Shown here: positions 2,357 through 55,638 of the stretch, in pieces
Numbering within the stretch: the stretch's first letter is position 1
How the letters are laid out: every line of letters begins with the position of its first letter
Origin: an uncultured Heliobacteriaceae bacterium
Lineage (GTDB): Bacteria; Acidobacteriota; Blastocatellia; RBC074
DNA: 64,000 nt
Assembly (NCBI GenBank): GCA_964631865.1
Contig: CAZWAK010000015.1
Coordinates: 89 to 64,088, forward strand
Direction: 5' to 3'
Notes under the pieces: model-generated
What the model was told of the DNA's origin: nothing
What the model saw: only the letters and a program-made list of their open reading frames with translations
Databases searched by the model: none
Made by a program: the position numbers and the translations under genes

Positions 2357-4057
2357 TTACTTAATTGTAACATCGCGTATTTGCAGATTTTGTTGCGAAC
2401 CATCACTAATAGTTTTACGGGCAGATAATCGCAGTCTCAGTAAGCGGGACAAGAGCCGCAAATGTCCGAAGATAGTTTTCAATAACTTCATTTTTGAGTA
2501 CCCGAATAACCGCACCGCTAACGTGGCCGGATACTCAACGATAGGTTCTCCTTGTAGGTCTAACTTCCCTAATAGTTCCGCTATACCTAAGAAGTTATCT
2601 TCTTCCAGTTGTAGCTTTTCAACCACGCTCTTTCTATACACGCGAAAACAACTGGTATACGTCGCTAAGTTCTGACGTAAGACCTGGCGGTACAAAAACG
2701 AAGAACCTTTGGATAAAGTCAGCCGCCAAGCGGGAACATTTAGCACTTTTCCCTCGGCGTGATAAGGCGAGGCCGTGACGAGCGAAACTCCCTCTTGTAA
2801 TCGTGGGATCATGTTTTTCAGTTCGTGCGGATCATACGAACAATCACAATCCATCGAACAAACAATCTCGGTTTTCGCCGCGTGAATGCCCGTCATAATC
2901 GCTGCTGCCACGCCCTGATTTTGCTTGTGTCGCAGGATGGCGAAGTTCGGTTTCTGGGAAAATAGTCGCTGTAAACTTTCCTGCGTTTGATCCGTACTAC
3001 AATCGTCCACAAAGATAAAGCTTGGTTTATACTTTTCCCCCAACGTTTCTTCCACACTAACTAAAGTGTTGGCTAAGTAAGGCAACGTAGATTCTTCATT
3101 AAAGCAGGGGATCACGATACTAACGGGGACTTTATTCGTTGCCTCGGAATTGATAGTGATAAGTTTCGGCTTATTTAATGATTTCGCTTTAACTAACTCT
3201 GGCGCTAATTTGGTGTCTAAGTGTAAGTACTCGGCAAAAGACGTGAAGTTATACTTCTTCAGATAATCCTCAATGACCCAATACATTTTACCGAGGTTGC
3301 GGTAATGTCGGATTTTAGCCAAAGGCGAAGCGCTGTTGATGCGCGGTTGCAGGCGATCCAGTTCCCAGACGTGAAAATACATCACGAACGGCGCATCGTG
3401 CGACTCGTGCCAGTTTTTGACGGCTTGCTTGAGAATCGTATGAGGAAATTGCCGGAAGAAATTGCCGCCCGCAATCGGCAGTAAAACGCCGGGCATTTTC
3501 CAGGTCGAAACCGGGAACTCCCGTAGCGACTTCGTACCGAATTGTAATTCATGGGCAAATTGTTTGGCGGGGTCGCGGCGCAATTCGTCGCGCGTCGGGA
3601 CGATGCTGGCGTCGTAGGCAAATCCTTCCTGCGCCAAAATTTCCAACGCCCATTGCACGGTTTTGAATTGCCATCGCTGCGCCGCGCGGAAGCCCACGAC
3701 TTGAGCTTGACCCGCCTCCGCCAACGTGTCGCGCGCGCGCAGAAGTTCTTCGCGGAAGTCTTCTGGACTAATGCGGTCGAGTTCCAGATTGGAATAGAGC
3801 GCGATTTCATGCCCGCGCCGCGTGATTTCACGGATGATATCGGGTTGGCGCTCGGCAATCCAACCGAGCGAAAAAAAGGTGACTTTGGCTTGAAAGCGAT
3901 CCAGCAGGTCGAGCGCCATCAGCGTGTTGTGCTCAAAGCGCGCTTCAAAGTGCGCCCATTGCCCACGCTGAATCAGATAATTGAACGCACCTACGTGATA
4001 GTAGTCTTCGAGCAAGACCGCCAGAAGGTGTCGCTTTGTCGGTAGCGGCTGGGTCAT
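2357..4057 (-). CDS. Fusion protein: N-terminal CE4 polysaccharide deacetylase (DUF3473/PEP-CTERM-locus type) + C-terminal family-2 glycosyltransferase
   Basis: 566 aa. N-terminal half has deacetylase-like blocks (VTFFSLGWIAERQPDIIREI..GHEIALYS). C-terminal half is GT2 (VSIVIPCFNEE..VDDCSTDQT..CSMDCDCSYDP). Confidence 0.8.
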   Translation of the reverse strand: MTQPLPTKRHLLAVLLEDYYHVGAFNYLIQRGQWAHFEARFEHNTLMALDLLDRFQAKVTFFSLGWIAERQPDIIREITRRGHEIALYSNLELDRISPEDFREELLRARDTLAEAGQAQVVGFRAAQRWQFKTVQWALEILAQEGFAYDASIVPTRDELRRDPAKQFAHELQFGTKSLREFPVSTWKMPGVLLPIAGGNFFRQFPHTILKQAVKNWHESHDAPFVMYFHVWELDRLQPRINSASPLAKIRHYRNLGKMYWVIEDYLKKYNFTSFAEYLHLDTKLAPELVKAKSLNKPKLITINSEATNKVPVSIVIPCFNEESTLPYLANTLVSVEETLGEKYKPSFIFVDDCSTDQTQESLQRLFSQKPNFAILRHKQNQGVAAAIMTGIHAAKTEIVCSMDCDCSYDPHELKNMIPRLQEGVSLVTASPYHAEGKVLNVPAWRLTLSKGSSFLYRQVLRQNLATYTSCFRVYRKSVVEKLQLEEDNFLGIAELLGKLDLQGEPIVEYPATLAVRLFGYSKMKLLKTIFGHLRLLSRLLRLRLSARKTISDGSQQNLQIRDVTIK

Positions 4058-5891: not shown

Positions 5892-6950
5892 TTAGCGCGC
5901 GACACCTGCCGCGCGTGCGTCTTGCGGCGTTTCCACTGTGGCCGGAAAGCTTGCGTAGCTCCACTGCCAGGTCTTTTGATTGCGCAGGTCGGCCAGACGC
6001 AACGTGAATTCCAACACGTCGCCGGGGCGTTGCGTCGTCGCCTCGACACGGTAGAGCGGCAGGCTCCAATGCGTGTGCAACGTGCCCGCGCGCACAGGCG
6101 CAGTCGTGAAAGAAATCTCGTCGTCGAAGATTGCCTTGAAATACAAACAAAAGCCGTCCAAGCGTCCGCCCGTCGTCACAACGCGCCGATAATGCAGCGT
6201 CGCGGGAATGTCTTCTTGGCGCAGCGTGGCCAGATCAAACGTCAACACGGCTTTGGGTTGGCACAGCAATTGTCGCACCTGCTGCGGCTTGATGGTGGTC
6301 TGAAAATGATCTGCGCCGATTTGCGTTTTCAGCGATTTCAAATGGTCGAACTGAATCGTCGCAATGTTTTGCTCCCAGATAAACGGCACGCGGTCTTCGT
6401 CGTTGAGTTGCACCGGTTCAATGAACAACTCAAACCGACCGGGCAGAATTTTGCCGCCCGCCTTCAGCAATCGGTCGCGCGCGTCCAACACGCTCTCAAT
6501 CATATTTTCATTGAAGAGCCACGACCCCATTTGTTCTTGCACGAGAATGTCAACTTTTTCGGGCAGCACGACGCTTTGGCTGGGCGACTTGATGAACGTG
6601 ATGTTGATGATGTTGTTGTGTGCCGCGACGAGCTTGGCGGTTTCAATCATCTCGCCGTGATCTACGGCGTACACTTGTTTCGGCTGCTGGCGCGCGGCGA
6701 GAAACGACAAAATGCCCGTGCCTGTGCCGAGATCAAGCACGACATCGCGTTCCGTCACGTGTTTGGCGAGCGCCCACGCATACGCCTGGATGCGCACCGT
6801 GTCGGCCAACATCGTTTCGTGAATGGATAAGCCGCTGAAATGTTCCTGGTTTGCAATCTGCCGGTAAAGCGAAGCCAGGCGAGGATGAGCAAGAACTTTG
6901 GTTTTCAGACGAAGCAATAACCGGAAGACAGCCCCGATCAGTTTTTTCAT
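5892..6950 (-). CDS. Class I SAM-dependent methyltransferase, protein arginine N-methyltransferase (PRMT)-like
   Basis: VLDLGTGTGILSF SAM-binding motif I, followed by PRMT-like blocks (ILVQEQMGSWLFNENMIESV; ..TLHTHWSL.., a THW-loop-like element). Confidence 0.6.
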   Translation of the reverse strand: MKKLIGAVFRLLLRLKTKVLAHPRLASLYRQIANQEHFSGLSIHETMLADTVRIQAYAWALAKHVTERDVVLDLGTGTGILSFLAARQQPKQVYAVDHGEMIETAKLVAAHNNIINITFIKSPSQSVVLPEKVDILVQEQMGSWLFNENMIESVLDARDRLLKAGGKILPGRFELFIEPVQLNDEDRVPFIWEQNIATIQFDHLKSLKTQIGADHFQTTIKPQQVRQLLCQPKAVLTFDLATLRQEDIPATLHYRRVVTTGGRLDGFCLYFKAIFDDEISFTTAPVRAGTLHTHWSLPLYRVEATTQRPGDVLEFTLRLADLRNQKTWQWSYASFPATVETPQDARAAGVAR

Positions 6951-13140: not shown

Positions 13141-13370
<230 letters not shown>

Positions 13371-13412
13371 GTTTCTGTAATCTCAAATCTGAAATTTCCA
13401 ATTTGAGATTCT
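13371..13412. repeat. Second copy of the TCTCAAATCT/ATTTGAGATT palindromic repeat
   Basis: gtaatctcaaatctgaaatttccaatttgagattc, an inverted repeat. Confidence 0.55.
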
Positions 13413-13413
13413 T

Positions 13414-13520
13414 ATCAGGCTCCGGCCTTGTGCAATCTTGAGCGCATGAACCCCGCCAGGATCGGAAGATAGCAACGGTAGTGATGCTCGGATGTGCCGC
13501 AGGCCACCGGAGCCTGGCCT
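13414..13520 (+). ncRNA. ffs: Probable signal-recognition-particle RNA (4.5S/small SRP RNA, ffs)
   Basis: Long terminal helix (CAGGCTCCGGCC ... GGCCaccGGAGCCTG). It encloses a domain-IV-like core CCAGGATC-GGAA-GATAGCAAC, resembling the conserved CAGGUCC-GGAA-GGAAGCAGC with GGAA tetraloop. Position upstream of dnaX-ybaB-recR matches the classical scr/ffs synteny. Confidence 0.5.
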
Positions 13521-13560
13521 TCTTTCAATTTCAAATTTGAGATGTCAGATTTGAGATGAA
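13521..13560. repeat. Direct repeats of the ATTTGAGATG motif (third copy of the tRNA-flanking repeat family)
   Basis: caaatttgagatgtcagatttgagatg. Confidence 0.5.
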
Positions 13561-14095: not shown

Positions 14096-15883
14096 ATGAG
14101 TTATCAGGTTATCGCGCGCAAATATCGCCCTCAAACCTTTGCGGACTTAGCCGGGCAGGAACATATTTCCCGTACACTCAAGAATGCCATTGAAAATCAG
14201 CGCCTGCATCACGCTTATTTATTTTCAGGTGTGCGCGGAACAGGGAAAACCACGACCGCACGCATTCTGGCGAAATGTCTGAATTGCCTCAAGGGAGTTA
14301 CCAGCGAACCTTGTTTGCAATGCCCTTCGTGTACGGAAATTGCGGCGGGTAATGCGCTCGATGTAATCGAAATTGATGCTGCCTCCAATACCGGCGTAGA
14401 TAACGTGCGGGAAGTGATCGTCAATAGTATCTCTATCGCGCCCGCGCGAGATCGGTACAAAGTCTTCATCATTGACGAAGTTCACATGCTCTCGAATCAA
14501 GCCTTCAATGCGCTGCTGAAAACATTAGAGGAGCCGCCCGCACACGTTGTGTTTCTGATGGCCACGACGGAACTGCATAAAGTTCCTGACACCATTCTAT
14601 CGCGTTGCCAGCAGTTCGAGTTTCGGCAAATTCCCGTCGAGAAAATCTTTCAGCGATTGCGCGACATTGCGGACGCTGAGCAAGTCAAAATCAATAATGA
14701 TGCGTTACGCGAAGTCGCGCGCGCAGGCAATGGCAGCCTACGCGATGCGCAATCTGCTTTGGATCAGGTTATTTCTTTCAGCGGGACAGAGATTACTGAA
14801 CAAGACGTAATTCATTCGCTCGGTTTGGTAAGTGCGAAAATATTGGGAAAGACTATCGAAGCACTGGCTGAACAAAATACTGCTGACTTACTCAACGTCG
14901 TAGAAGAATTGGATGCGAGCGGGCACGACCTGCGGTTCTTCACGCGCGAGTTGATGACTTACTTTCGGCACTTATTGGTTATCAAAGCGGGGCTTACTGA
15001 CAGCGACGTTTTGGGCTTGGCTGAAACTGAAATTGCGAAGCTCAAACAGGTATCGCCGCAGTTCTCCGAAGAAGATTTGGTGCGCTTTTTCCACTTACTG
15101 ACAGAGATCGAAAAGCAAATCAAAGATTCTCCTCAACCGCGCTTTCAGTTGGAAATCGGCTTAGTCAAACTCGCGCACGCGACGCGCCTGCGAACTTTGG
15201 ACGAAGTTATCAAACGGCTCGAAGAATTAGCGAGTAACTTTGGCGGCGGAACTCTACCTAAGATGAATTCTGCGCCGCTTCCCGCGAAATCAACCACTCC
15301 TGCGCGCAGCACTGCGCCGCCTGCCACTTCTCAGCGAACCGCGCCACGAATCGAAGAACCTGTTCCTTCCGTTGCCGCGAACTCGTTTGAGGAGCCGCCC
15401 GGCTTCAGTGATTCGTTCGCACAAGATTCGTTGGCGGAACCAACCGTAGAAGCAATGCCGGAACCTGTTGCGCGCCCCGTCGCTGCCGCTGCGCCGTCAT
15501 CGCCAGTTGCGGCGGGGCGTGAAATTGGGGCCATCAAGATGGAGTTGGAAAAGCGCCGCAAACCGCTGATTGTAATGGCGCTGGAAGAAGCGCGCGTCGA
15601 GTACCACAACGGCAAACTTACGGCAACTTTTGCCAGCGAAAATACGTTTTCCAAACGACTGAAAGAAAGCTCGGATTTATTCCGCGAGATCGGCGAACAG
15701 TTGCTCGGACAGCCCTTGCGCGTGGAAGTCAGACTCAATGGGGAAGCGGTTGCGATGCCCGCGCAGGAACCCCAACAAGCGCGCGAAACGTTGCTGGAAA
15801 GCGTCCAAAACAATCCGGCGGTGAAGTTGTTGTTGGAAACTTTTCGTGGCGAAATTGTAGATGTGCGGGAATTGCGGTCTTGA
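14096..15883 (+). CDS. dnaX: DNA polymerase III subunits gamma/tau
   Basis: [49 protein letters not shown], a clamp-loader AAA+ N-terminus, with Pro/Ala-rich tau linker. Confidence 0.92.
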
Positions 15884-15960
15884 GAGTCTGAGGAGTCTGG
15901 AGAGTCTGGAGAGTCAAAAGAATCATTGCCGTCAGCGACTCAAGACTCCTTAGACTTTGA
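15884..15960 (+). terminator. Repeat-rich stem-loop region after dnaX (GAGTCTG x4 direct repeats with inverted AGACTC copies)
   Basis: gagagtctgaggagtctggagagtctggagagtc ... gactcaagactccttagactt can form an extended hairpin. No clean T-run. Confidence 0.35.
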
Positions 15961-16340: not shown

Positions 16341-16415
16341 GATCAGTTTCGCGTTTCGCGTTTTGTGTTTCGTGGCAAACGCGCGAAACTGGAAAGCGCG
16401 AAACTCGAAACTAAA
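16341..16415. repeat. Imperfect ~70-nt palindrome (GTTTCGCG x2 ... CGCGAAACT x2) between ybaB and recR
   Basis: gtttcgcgtttcgcgttttgtgtttcgtggcaaacgcgcgaaactggaaagcgcgaaactcgaaact. Confidence 0.45.
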
Positions 16416-47742: not shown

Positions 47743-48059
47743 TCGTGACCTAAACAGGAAAGAAGGAGGTTCAACCGTCAAAGAGACAAGGTTTGCATAA
47801 GCTCGCGATGCGATGGACTGGCAGGGGAAACTCAATAGGTGAACCGCCCAGTGTCAGCAGTTTCCCCGCCAGTCCGCAGACGTGAAACGGATGGGACGTC
47901 TGTGCCCCACTTTCTCCTCTCGCACTTTACTTTGTCGTCGGCGAACCCCGACGCGCCCCAACGCGCTACGGCAAAGGGAGTGAAAGACGGGAATGCTGAA
48001 ACGGACGAGCGGCAGAAAGTGGAGCGCGTTTCTGCCCTAAGACAAGAAAGAACCTCACA

Positions 48060-53320: not shown

Positions 53321-53479
53321 ATGTCAAGATTAAGCGTCGTTGGTGAACTTTGGCAGTTCATGAAGCACAACAAAAAATTCTGGCTGGCCCCGATTGTCAT
53401 TGTTCTGGTGACGATTGGCGTGCTTCTGGCAGTGGCCGGAAGCTCCGCGTTGGCTCCATTCATCTATACACTCTTTTAA
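53321..53479 (+). CDS. SxtK-like/DUF5989-type micro-membrane protein (52 aa); too short for the ORF track
   Basis: atg at 53321 after AGGAG. Translation MSRLSVVGELWQFMKHNKKFWLAPIVIVLVTIGVLLAVAGSSALAPFIYTLF, a single TM. Confidence 0.5.
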   Translation: MSRLSVVGELWQFMKHNKKFWLAPIVIVLVTIGVLLAVAGSSALAPFIYTLF

Positions 53480-53480
53480 T

Positions 53481-53566
53481 CAGCTATCAGCTATCAGCCA
53501 TTAGCCATCAGCTAATGGCTGATAGCTAATGGCTAATAGCTAATAGCTGATAGCTAATGGCTAATA
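53481..53566. repeat. Heptanucleotide tandem array (12 units) forming a long imperfect palindrome
   Basis: CTATCAG CTATCAG CCATTAG CCATCAG, then the reverse-complement units CTAATGG CTGATAG CTAATGG CTAATAG CTAATAG CTGATAG CTAATGG CTAATAG. Ends 9 nt before the carbamoyltransferase RBS. Confidence 0.85.
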
Positions 53567-53581
53567 GGAAGGTTTAGTTTT

Positions 53582-55507
53582 ATGACCAGTATTCTGGGAA
53601 TCTCTGCGTTTTATCACGATTCTGCGGCCTGCCTCGTCGTTGATGGCGAGATCATTGCTGCTGCACAGGAAGAGCGCTTCACCCGCGTCAAGCACGATCA
53701 TCGCTTCCCCGGCAACGCTGTGATGTACTGTCTCAAAGAAGCAGGCATCACGCCGGAGCAAATTGATTACGTCGGCTTCTACGATAAGCCGCTGCTCAAA
53801 TTCGACCGCTTGCTGGAAACCTATCTGGATTACACTCCGGCAGGCTTCGTGTCGTTCCTCAAATCCATGCCGATGTGGATGAAGGAAAAGTTGTGGGCAC
53901 CCGATTTGATCCGCACCGATTTCGCCAAAGCTCTCGGCGCAGAAGATGATCGCGCCGCGCGCAAGATGGCGAAAACATTCAAATGGAAGCTGCTCTTCGG
54001 CGATCATCACGAGAGCCACGCGGCCAGCGCCTTTTATCCTTCGCCGTATGAAGAAGCCGCCGTTCTCACGCTCGATGGCGTCGGCGAATGGGCGACCAGT
54101 TCGATTGGGATTGGGCGCGGCAACGAATTGACAATGCTCAAGGAATTGCGCTTCCCCGACAGCCTCGGACTGCTCTACAGCGCGTTTACTTACTACACGG
54201 GCTTCAAGGTCAACAGCGGCGAATACAAAGTCATGGGACTGGCTCCGTACGGCGAACCTAAATATGTTTCGTTGATCAAAGACAAAGTGGTGGAAATCTG
54301 CGACGACGGCAGCCTGCGCATGAATCAGGACTATTTTGAATACAGTCAGGGCTTGCGCATGACGAACAACACGTTCGCCAAACTCTTCGGCGCTCCCGCG
54401 CGTGAACCGGAATCGAAGGTCACACAACGCGAGATGGATTTGGCGCGCAGCGTGCAGGAAATCACCGAAGAAGCCGTGATGAAGATGGCGGAGTTTACGC
54501 GCAAGGAAACCGGCCTGAAGCGGCTTTGTATGGCGGGCGGCGTGGCGCTGAATTGCGTGGCCAATGGCAAGCTCTTACGCAAAGGCATCTTTGATGACAT
54601 CTGGATTCAACCGGCGGCAGGTGATGCCGGCGGTGCGCTCGGCATTGCGCTGGCAATCTGGCATCGCTATCTCGGCAAAGGTCGCACCAGCCCGGAAAGC
54701 CAGGGGACGTGGGTCTCGTCGCGTTCGTATGCCAATGGTGTTCCATTGCCTTACGCCGACAGCATGAAAGGCTCCTATCTCGGTCCGAAAAATTCGGAAG
54801 AAGAGATTGAGCGATACCTCAAAGCGAACAATTATCCCTACACCAAATACAGCCGCGAAGAATTGCCGCATGCCGTAGGCAGGTTGCTGGCTTCAGAAAA
54901 AGTCATCGGCTTGCATCAAGGCCGCATGGAATTTGGCCCGCGCGCGTTGGGCGGTCGCAGCATCATCGGTGACGCCCGCTCTACCAAGATGCAATCCATC
55001 ATGAATCTGAAGATCAAGTACCGGGAAAGCTTCCGCCCGTTTGCGCCGAGCGTGCTGCGGGAACATGTGGCTGATTGGTTTGATCTGAATACTGACAGCC
55101 CGTACATGCTGTTGGTGGCCGATGTGCGCGAGAACCGTTGCCGCCAGATGACGAGAGACGAAGAAGAACTCTGGGGCATCGAGAAGCTAAATGTTGTGCG
55201 CTCGGAAATCCCGGCGGTCACGCACGTGGATTACTCGGCGCGCATTCAAACCGTGCGCCACGACGTCAATCCGCTCTACTGGGAAATCATGGAAGCATTT
55301 CGGAAACTCACCGGCTGCCCTGTGATCGTCAACACCAGCTTCAATGTGCGCGGCGAACCGATTGTTTGTTCACCCGAAGACAGCTATCGCTGCTTTATGC
55401 GCACCGAGATGGACGCATTGGTACTGGAAACGTGCGTGTTAGAGAAAAAAGATCAGCCTGAATTCAAAGATAAGACCGATTGGCGGTCAGAATTCACGCT
55501 CGACTAA
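53582..55507 (+). CDS. NodU/CmcH-family O-carbamoyltransferase
   Basis: MTSILGISAFYHDSAACLV.. Carbam_trans_N and Carbam_trans_C. 641 aa. Confidence 0.9.
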   Translation: MTSILGISAFYHDSAACLVVDGEIIAAAQEERFTRVKHDHRFPGNAVMYCLKEAGITPEQIDYVGFYDKPLLKFDRLLETYLDYTPAGFVSFLKSMPMWMKEKLWAPDLIRTDFAKALGAEDDRAARKMAKTFKWKLLFGDHHESHAASAFYPSPYEEAAVLTLDGVGEWATSSIGIGRGNELTMLKELRFPDSLGLLYSAFTYYTGFKVNSGEYKVMGLAPYGEPKYVSLIKDKVVEICDDGSLRMNQDYFEYSQGLRMTNNTFAKLFGAPAREPESKVTQREMDLARSVQEITEEAVMKMAEFTRKETGLKRLCMAGGVALNCVANGKLLRKGIFDDIWIQPAAGDAGGALGIALAIWHRYLGKGRTSPESQGTWVSSRSYANGVPLPYADSMKGSYLGPKNSEEEIERYLKANNYPYTKYSREELPHAVGRLLASEKVIGLHQGRMEFGPRALGGRSIIGDARSTKMQSIMNLKIKYRESFRPFAPSVLREHVADWFDLNTDSPYMLLVADVRENRCRQMTRDEEELWGIEKLNVVRSEIPAVTHVDYSARIQTVRHDVNPLYWEIMEAFRKLTGCPVIVNTSFNVRGEPIVCSPEDSYRCFMRTEMDALVLETCVLEKKDQPEFKDKTDWRSEFTLD

Positions 55508-55638
55508 CGTTTAGTCACAATGCGCAAAGTACAATTGTGTAAGTTACTTCTTTCAGGATCAAAGCTGAGGATTTGAACTTACGGCGCACTAACTTATCTG
55601 ACGTCAGCGTATTACGCTGACATCGTTGGAGAGTTGAG

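Follow-up and report, generated by a model that had tools for sequence, protein, structure and literature searches.

A palindromic heptanucleotide repeat tract in the spacer between a DUF5989 gene and a carbamoyltransferase gene of a Blastocatellia-like genome

The window considered here is a stretch of 64,000 nucleotides (nt) of contig CAZWAK010000015.1, and the element of interest within it is a tandem array of heptanucleotide units that separates a small gene of the DUF5989 (SxtK-like) family from a gene for a carbamoyltransferase (Table 1). By direct reading of the sequence the heptamer tract occupies positions 53479-53567, a length of 89 nt or about 12.7 units. It is non-coding and takes up the entire interval between the DUF5989 stop and the ribosome-binding site (RBS) of the carbamoyltransferase gene. 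The first paired base of the hairpin described below directly adjoins the TAA stop (53477-53479), the tract begins on the last base of this stop, and it ends one base 5′ of GGAAGG, the carbamoyltransferase RBS. The initial annotation of this DNA had reported an array of 86 nt at 53481-53566; the array is real and its coordinates were essentially right, and its placement between the SxtK-like stop and the carbamoyltransferase RBS is exact according to the list of open reading frames (ORFs) and the sequence. The host genome belongs to the Acidobacteriota and is Blastocatellia-like. Homologues of the carbamoyltransferase number in the hundreds at 80-97% identity, and those that carry names come from metagenome-assembled genomes (MAGs) of Blastocatellia or Acidobacteriota; the protein cluster that contains the window's own protein has one member.

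The tract consists of five ATYAGCY units followed by eight RGCTRAT units, which are their reverse complements, plus AG, and the AGCT at the centre is common to both blocks. The eight right-block units and the inverted arrangement had already been recognized, while the left block had been counted as four units, for a total of twelve. A 28-nt (four-unit) duplication with 96% identity is found in the right arm, where Tandem Repeats Finder (TRF) gives rows at periods 7, 14 and 28, and the lag-7 self-match of the DUF5989-carbamoyltransferase spacer is 0.73. In a scan of the window, the 17-nt degenerate two-unit pattern GCTRATRGCTRATRGCT (with up to two mismatches) has 11 matches against 0.05 expected, all of them in the tract. 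The heptamer periodicity probably stems from replication slippage, because of the 28-nt duplication and the unequal arms (five versus eight units), and the array appears from these features to have been changing by slippage. Stop codons are present in all three forward frames of the right block and in all three reverse frames of the reverse complement of the left block, and with six frames closed a leader peptide or other small ORF was rejected. An assembly artefact was likewise rejected, since gene order on either side of the tract agrees with that of relatives and a single read is longer than the tract.

The two blocks are predicted to fold into a long stem-loop of about 32 pairs with three 1x1 mismatches, and the last two units (53552-53567) have no partners in the structure of lowest energy. 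For the sense RNA the folding energy is -51.3 kcal/mol (z-score, z, of -5.8), a value that none of 200 dinucleotide shuffles equals. This calculation bears out the hairpin-forming capacity that had been claimed for the array; the long hairpin stands, and its stem is slightly longer than the approximately 28 base pairs (bp) first given. Folded as DNA the tract reaches -28.9 kcal/mol (z -5.9), and the antisense RNA (53470-53585) reaches -61.1 kcal/mol (z -11.2) with an uninterrupted 36-bp stem. All four transition mismatches of the sense strand are C-A appositions that become G-U on the antisense strand; the related locus L001 (related loci are given here by L numbers) is alike in this respect, and the other orthologues are without bias. 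A raw sliding-window ranking by minimum free energy is dominated by GC-rich coding sequence, and the tract is set apart in it by its low GC (0.39) only; inverted-repeat and shuffle-based scores were used instead. No Rfam family reaches its gathering score at the locus. The best hits are precursor hairpins of microRNAs (33 bits versus a gathering score of 97), and a known structured RNA was rejected on the ground that only this sub-threshold eukaryotic noise was returned.

Table 1. Coordinates of features in the 64-kb window, with lengths of the orthologous spacer in close relatives
Feature	Position	Strand	Description	Basis
DUF5989 (SxtK-like) gene	53321..53479	+	52 aa	ORF list; Pfam PF19451, E 9.5e-25
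Left arm of tract	53479..53513	+	ATCAGCT, ATCAGCT, ATCAGCC, ATTAGCC, ATCAGCT	TRF period 7, 5.1 copies (53479-53514); unit dissection
Right arm of tract	53510..53567	+	AGCTAAT, GGCTGAT, AGCTAAT, GGCTAAT, AGCTAAT, AGCTGAT, AGCTAAT, GGCTAAT	TRF period 7, 8.3 copies
Predicted stem-loop	53479..53551	+	arms 53479-53512 and 53518-53551, 34 nt each, 91% complementary	inverted repeat
Ribosome-binding region	53568..53584	+	GGAAGGTTTAGTTTT, then ATG at 53582	invariant from GGAAGG onward in alignment with L001 and L004
Carbamoyltransferase gene	53582..55507	+	641 aa	Pfam Carbam_trans_N and Carbam_trans_C
Three small hairpins	about 13235-13283, 13377-13411, 13524-13560	+	AATCTCA/TGAGATT type	TRF; z -2.0, -2.6, -3.7
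9-mer array with inverted partner	15881..15959, or 15877-15956	+	GTCTGGAGA x4.3	TRF, inverted repeat; -36.6 kcal/mol, z -3.9
7-mer hairpin	16345..16412	+	GTTTCGC x4, then CGAAACT type	TRF, inverted repeat; -37.9 kcal/mol, z -5.6
Spacer in L001, L206, L207, L208, L209			87 nt	
Spacer in L210			88 nt	
Spacer in L004			82 nt	
Spacer in L211			81 nt	

A stem-loop of such stability that stands directly after a stop codon could act as a transcription terminator or attenuator insulating the carbamoylation genes, as had been suggested for the array, and terminators without a U-tract have been proposed for some phyla. However, the sequence directly 3′ of the stem is AGCTAATGGCTAATAGGAAGG rather than a T-run, and the stem is AT-rich (GC 0.39 in the 100-nt stretch 53471-53570 that holds it), features by which the class of Rho-independent terminators was rejected. 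In 53479-53581 a consensus scan detected nothing that resembles a terminator or a promoter, which leaves the region between the array and the ATG without a promoter-like site as well, and similar hairpins stand between tRNA genes of the window that are expected to share one precursor. Distant relatives, whose carbamoyltransferases are 63-90% identical, have DUF5989-carbamoyltransferase spacers of 0-49 nt, mostly 0-24 and often 4 nt, the value of 49 being confined to one pair (L174/L175). These short gaps argue that the two genes form one transcription unit and are co-transcribed, and a terminator or attenuator between them is quite unlikely.

In close relatives the carbamoyltransferase is 91-97% identical. 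Their spacers (Table 1) hold a long hairpin followed by a conserved tail of TCACTT, one variable base, GGAAGGTTTAGTTTT as in the window, and ATG. Folding energies lie between -31 and -37 kcal/mol (z -2.2 to -4.8) for seven of these eight hairpins, and L004 has a much weaker one (-18 to -20 kcal/mol, z -1.3). The stems differ strongly in sequence and are non-repetitive, yet pairing is retained, and RNAalifold predicts 21 pairs for seven non-repetitive orthologues, 10 of them with compensatory changes. A comparison of L001 with L207 gives an identity of 0.52 for the stem and 0.65 for fourfold-degenerate sites in the adjacent gene, which suggests that the stem changes at an approximately neutral rate and nevertheless remains paired. 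The window tract has an identity of only 0.17-0.38, a random level, with any of the orthologous hairpins. Homology to L001 ends at the stop codon and the megablast alignment restarts at 53567, so that the whole spacer, the RBS excepted, has been replaced or rebuilt; in the nearest relative the neighbouring gene is only 89% identical at the nucleotide level, and the spacer is non-repetitive. On these alignments the conserved feature of the junction is the hairpin and not the heptamer, and the tract sits at a spacer where the sister lineages sampled hold a stem-loop conserved in position and length. A riboswitch was rejected for want of sequence conservation. A miniature inverted-repeat transposable element (MITE) was also rejected: relatives show a different hairpin of similar length instead of an empty site, and reading of the sequence found no target-site duplication flanking 53479-53567.

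Several other relatives carry repeats or insertions at the same junction. In L215 (88% identical) positions 1412-1491 form a heptamer hairpin of an unrelated unit, GTAGACR x5 versus YGTCTAC x5, which folds at -49.3 kcal/mol (z -7.6) and lacks the GGAAGG ribosome-binding tail, and L139 has a 159-nt hairpin of CTCTGTG-type repeats. The spacers of L126, L128 and L129 are 123-143 nt long with two hairpins between CGTAA and GGTTTT, and that of their sister L127 is 11 nt, CGTAAGGTTTT; the comparison looks like an empty and a filled site of an inserted hairpin element. In L213 the spacer (2012-2324, 313 nt) consists of an ordinary hairpin and an insertion of about 220 nt with a very long, near-perfect stem, for a total fold of -130 kcal/mol, and this insertion may be a MITE-like element. 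Downstream of the carbamoyltransferase gene, the spacer towards a GDSL/SGNH gene has a small hairpin (window 55595-55630) just 5′ of the GGAGAG RBS of that gene. When the window was compared with L209 (11927-12058) and L207 (3427-3558), pairing in this smaller hairpin was found to be kept through compensatory changes in the three lineages (GACGTCAGCG/CGCTGACATC, GATGTCGGAG/CCCGACATT and AATGCCGGAA/CCCGGCATT).

Tandem-repeat hairpins are not confined to this junction. It had been stated that nothing like the array occurs elsewhere in the window, and this is true of the unit sequence only: a pattern scan of the 64 kb found no second locus of the tract's heptamer, but there are five further short-tandem-repeat hairpins built of other units. 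No common palindromic consensus was found among the window's six hairpins, whose units differ. Period-7 arrays with three copies or more number six in 64 kb, whereas a dinucleotide shuffle yields 0.23 and no shuffle out of 30 yields as many as six, and period 7 accounts for six of the nine arrays with three or more copies. The GTTTCGC hairpin fills the spacer (16341-16413) between a 127-aa ORF and the next ORF, which we take, by reading, to be ybaB-like and recR-like, respectively. The automatic gene map had absorbed this spacer into an over-long TTG ORF, and the site was treated by hand in the intergenic statistics. The 9-mer array lies in the spacer after a 595-aa ORF (14096-15883), and the putatively ybaB-like ORF has a tandem-repeat hairpin filling the spacer on both of its sides, one of 9-mers and one of 7-mers. 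At 13144-13560, tRNA-Ser(cga), tRNA-Ser(gga) and signal recognition particle (SRP) RNA genes follow in a row with a small hairpin in every spacer between or after them; the arms at 13250-13280 and 13380-13410 also form an inverted repeat that spans the second tRNA. Within the window, the host genome thus generally fills short spacers with tandem-repeat hairpins. Elsewhere in the window, a 317-nt spacer (47743-48059) holds two adjacent strong hairpins at 47811-47910, GGACTGGCAGGGGAAACT...AGTTTCCCCGCCAGTCC followed by GCAGACGTG...CGTCTGTGC, which may be a terminator pair upstream of a gene cluster.

These neighbours bear on the proposal that the tract is a slipped-strand contingency locus, in which changes in unit number would alter promoter or RBS spacing and make carbamoylation of exopolysaccharide (EPS) phase-variable. 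Signs of recent multi-unit duplication (the 28-nt period at 96% and the arms of five versus eight units) agree with such a role, whereas its position does not. The tract lies 3′ of the stop and 5′ of the RBS, in neither an ORF nor a promoter and with no promoter-like hexamers flanking it, and a contingency simple sequence repeat (SSR) was rejected by this position; since the tract is 5′ of the RBS, the spacing from RBS to ATG is independent of unit number. The units are imperfect, and heterogeneous repeat units lower slippage. A like architecture occurs beside housekeeping and stable-RNA genes, and the orthologues retain a hairpin that is non-repetitive. There is a precedent from Haemophilus, where intergenic heptamer tracts are described as able to act through the structure of the 5′ untranslated region (UTR; PMC12721329). 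A contingency locus is nonetheless very improbable here, and the tract is probably not a dedicated carbamoylation switch.

The unit of the tract is widespread. A genome scan with the pattern GCTRATRGCTRATRGCTRATRGCT, in which one genome per species was used, matches at least 120 loci across many phyla, where we estimate that about 0.3 matches would be expected at random in 596 Gb. Among the matches listed (80 titled loci), about 23 are cyanobacterial (including Moorena, Scytonema, Stigonema, Symploca and Microcoleus) and 8-9 belong to the Acidobacteriota, including three contigs of the Blastocatellia MAG PMV_6.28; Gemmatimonadota, Chloroflexota, Bacteroidota, Planctomycetota, Patescibacteria, Vibrio and others are also represented. 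The loci among these listed matches contain 222 period-7 and 69 period-14 arrays in 819 kb, and the carbamoyltransferase-orthologue loci contain four period-7 arrays in 545 kb. As 112 heptamer classes occur among 299 period-7 arrays, the common factor is the 7-nt period rather than any one sequence. Again among the matches listed, 18 of the 106 same-unit arrays (about 17%) have an inverted partner within 170 nt, versus none in controls taken 1 kb away. One such case in PMV_6.28 (L060 1540-1649) reads (ATCAGCT)5, loop, (GGCTGAG ... AGCTGAC ...) between two same-strand ORFs, with unit and architecture as in the window tract, and another contig of this MAG (L006) has more heptamer hairpins at 3076-3141 and 6059-6139. 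The pattern also matches 79 stretches in IMG/VR viral contigs. The viral or proviral contig IMGVR_UViG_3300044798_000503 (47 kb; L226, L229, L242, L260, L262 and L283) carries at least eight GCTRATR arrays, and two further viral contigs carry 3-5 each.

The tract unit is thus specific neither to the locus nor to the lineage. The initial annotation had named a generic repeat shared by many unrelated loci of the genome as the finding that would undo a dedicated role, and this is largely what is observed, with the unit on three contigs of PMV_6.28 and six period-7 arrays in the window. The same distribution bears on the suggestion that the tract is the binding array of a regulator that recognizes the heptamer. 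Here the regular spacing of 12-13 near-identical units is the only support; cold-shock-type proteins with an OB-fold have been raised as possible binders of heptamer repeats (PMC4679880). The window has the motif at this one site, the orthologous spacers lack it, and it recurs at unrelated loci of unrelated phyla and in viral contigs, which makes a dedicated operator array the most remote of the explanations considered.

The tract is a long SSR of a generic class, palindromic and built of heptanucleotide units, similar to the short tandemly repeated repetitive (STRR) sequences of cyanobacteria. The reading favoured here, taken whole, is that of a generic STRR-like palindrome that occupies a conserved intercistronic stem-loop site and acts passively on the operon mRNA; our confidence in it is evenly divided between acceptance and doubt. 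The polycistronic mRNA would carry a predicted intercistronic stem-loop of 32-36 bp, and either templated correction from arm to arm or compensatory selection would keep the arms complementary. The stem-loop might then serve as a barrier in processing or stability, or it might insulate the carbamoyltransferase cistrons from the sxtJ/sxtK-like ones upstream. This is the weakest step, and it is modelled on the hairpins of repetitive extragenic palindromes (REPs) and bacterial interspersed mosaic elements (BIMEs) in enterobacterial operons, so that the structure would be neither an on/off switch nor a sequence-specific operator. If the element acts at all, it would do so through mRNA processing, stability or decoupling of the cistrons, and selection on mRNA structure is plausible.

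Some of the same comparisons suggest how such palindromes could originate. At least one further lineage, L215, would have acquired a heptamer hairpin of unrelated unit (GTAGACR) at this junction independently. It can tentatively be proposed that heptamer palindromes arise in place from ordinary conserved intercistronic stem-loops, through 7-nt slippage in one arm that is copied to the other, and that this has happened independently in at least two lineages (AGCTRAT and GTAGACR); we consider this doubtful.

Four observations count against the favoured reading or the origin in place that goes with it. The covariation term of RNAalifold is slightly unfavourable (+0.59), as obtained from seven partly redundant sequences. 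The hairpin is absent from L127 and from all more distant relatives, so that it is dispensable for the operon. The comparison of sense and antisense folds is inconsistent, the antisense strand folding better in the window and L001, the sense strand in L215, and both about equally in the others; with no consistent sense preference, selection at the RNA level is no more than plausible and the pairing may have originated at the DNA level or by mutation only. Finally, the tract unit occurs at several loci of PMV_6.28, by which import of the tract or a sequence-biased genesis becomes equally possible.

The main rival draws on several of these points and holds that the tract is non-functional palindromic simple-sequence DNA, a mutational by-product or selfish element that is tolerated and that is produced by slippage and quasi-palindrome correction with no selection. 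Such hairpins fill many spacers that are unrelated to one another, some of them beside tRNA and SRP RNA genes; their unit sequences are very diverse, and their folding shows no strand asymmetry. That the operon can do without the hairpin is seen from the spacers of distant relatives (0-49 nt) and of L127 (11 nt), and further insertions have taken place at the junction in L213 and in the L126-L129 group. Unconstrained palindromes are, however, expected to decay or be deleted, whereas the spacer is held at 87-88 nt in six loci and at 81-82 nt in two, and a long hairpin is kept in most loci even though fourfold-site identity has fallen to 0.4-0.65. Neutral DNA is a possibility to be taken seriously, if on the unlikely side.

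For the carbamoylation locus itself, the generic type of the repeat gives no sound basis for supposing that EPS carbamoylation is switchable or under special regulation, and the value of the locus lies in the comparative series at the junction and not in the link to carbamoylation. Repeats with heptanucleotide units have been on record since 1990 and are statistically over-represented in many bacteria. The junction provides a natural series that runs from no hairpin, through an ordinary hairpin with turnover of the stem, to heptamer hairpins of two unrelated units, and this series bears on whether repeats grow from pre-existing stem-loops and on what weight the stem-loop has in the processing of Acidobacteriota operon mRNA. 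An origin in place, if general, would offer a concrete source for STRR-type repeats, and it would point to a lineage-specific property of replication or repair, or to an unknown enzyme, common to the patchy heptamer-rich phyla and viruses.

Among known systems, the REP and BIME elements are imperfect palindromes of enterobacterial intercistronic spacers (for example malE-malF), and as transcribed stem-loops they can stabilise upstream mRNA. REPs form a high-copy family with one consensus that is mobilised by the REP-associated tyrosine transposase (RAYT). The tract resembles these elements as a palindrome that fills the intercistronic spacer of an operon. It differs in that the hairpins of the window have no common consensus and the arms of the tract are internally tandem-repetitive, and the REP/REPIN/BIME class was rejected because, within the 64-kb window, the six hairpins use different units and the tract has no second copy.

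The STRR sequences of filamentous cyanobacteria form arrays of about 4-20 units. Like the tract they have a 7-nt unit, are tandem and are intergenic, and the tract's own unit type, GCTRATR, is present in Moorena, Scytonema, Stigonema, Symploca, Microcoleus and other genera according to the genome scan. They were described in Calothrix in 1990 (Mazel et al., as cited in PMC4692102). In the strict sense an STRR has a (heterocystous) cyanobacterium as host, whereas the host here is an acidobacterium. The tract also differs from STRR in that its unit is found at one locus of the 64-kb window, where the other arrays use other units, and in that it consists of two inverted blocks forming a hairpin, an arrangement seen in about 17% of same-unit arrays elsewhere.

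Long SSRs with units of 5-11 nt have been surveyed more broadly, and heptanucleotides are the most over-represented among them in many bacteria (Mrazek et al. 2007, as summarised in PMC4679880 and PMC4692102). The window is similar to what these summaries report in the dominance of period 7, the intergenic location, the patchy phylogeny and polymerase slippage as the proposed origin. The description is a statistical one, and a palindromic arrangement or a conserved stem-loop site is absent from the summaries in PMC4679880 and PMC4692102. Individual heptamer families include the intergenic TAACTGA repeats of marine Beggiatoaceae, Cyanobacteria and Bacteroidetes (PMC4679880), the GGGNATC repeats of Xanthomonas and Nostoc (PMC4692102) and the heptanucleotide elements of Geobacter (PMC2700814); the function of heptamers is unresolved in these three surveys. 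As with the tract, TAACTGA and GGGNATC heptamers stand just 5′ of start codons, are common to distant phyla, and have relatives with the same gene neighbourhood without repeats, and a role at the translational or post-transcriptional level has been suggested for them (PMC4679880, PMC4692102). Their units differ from that of the tract and their arrays are nearly all direct, with one inverted set among 170 in the Beggiatoaceae genome, whereas the inverted arrangement is the main feature of the tract. In a literature search limited to open-access papers, neither heptamer repeats of Acidobacteria nor heptamer palindromes were the subject of any paper found. The tract does not behave as an intrinsic terminator, a contingency locus, a REP/REPIN, a MITE or an Rfam family. 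It is a tandem 7-nt array beyond chance in an intergenic position, within a host window enriched in period-7 arrays, as is characteristic of heptanucleotide long SSRs and STRR-like repeats, and it adds a member to this known kind of heptanucleotide repeat.

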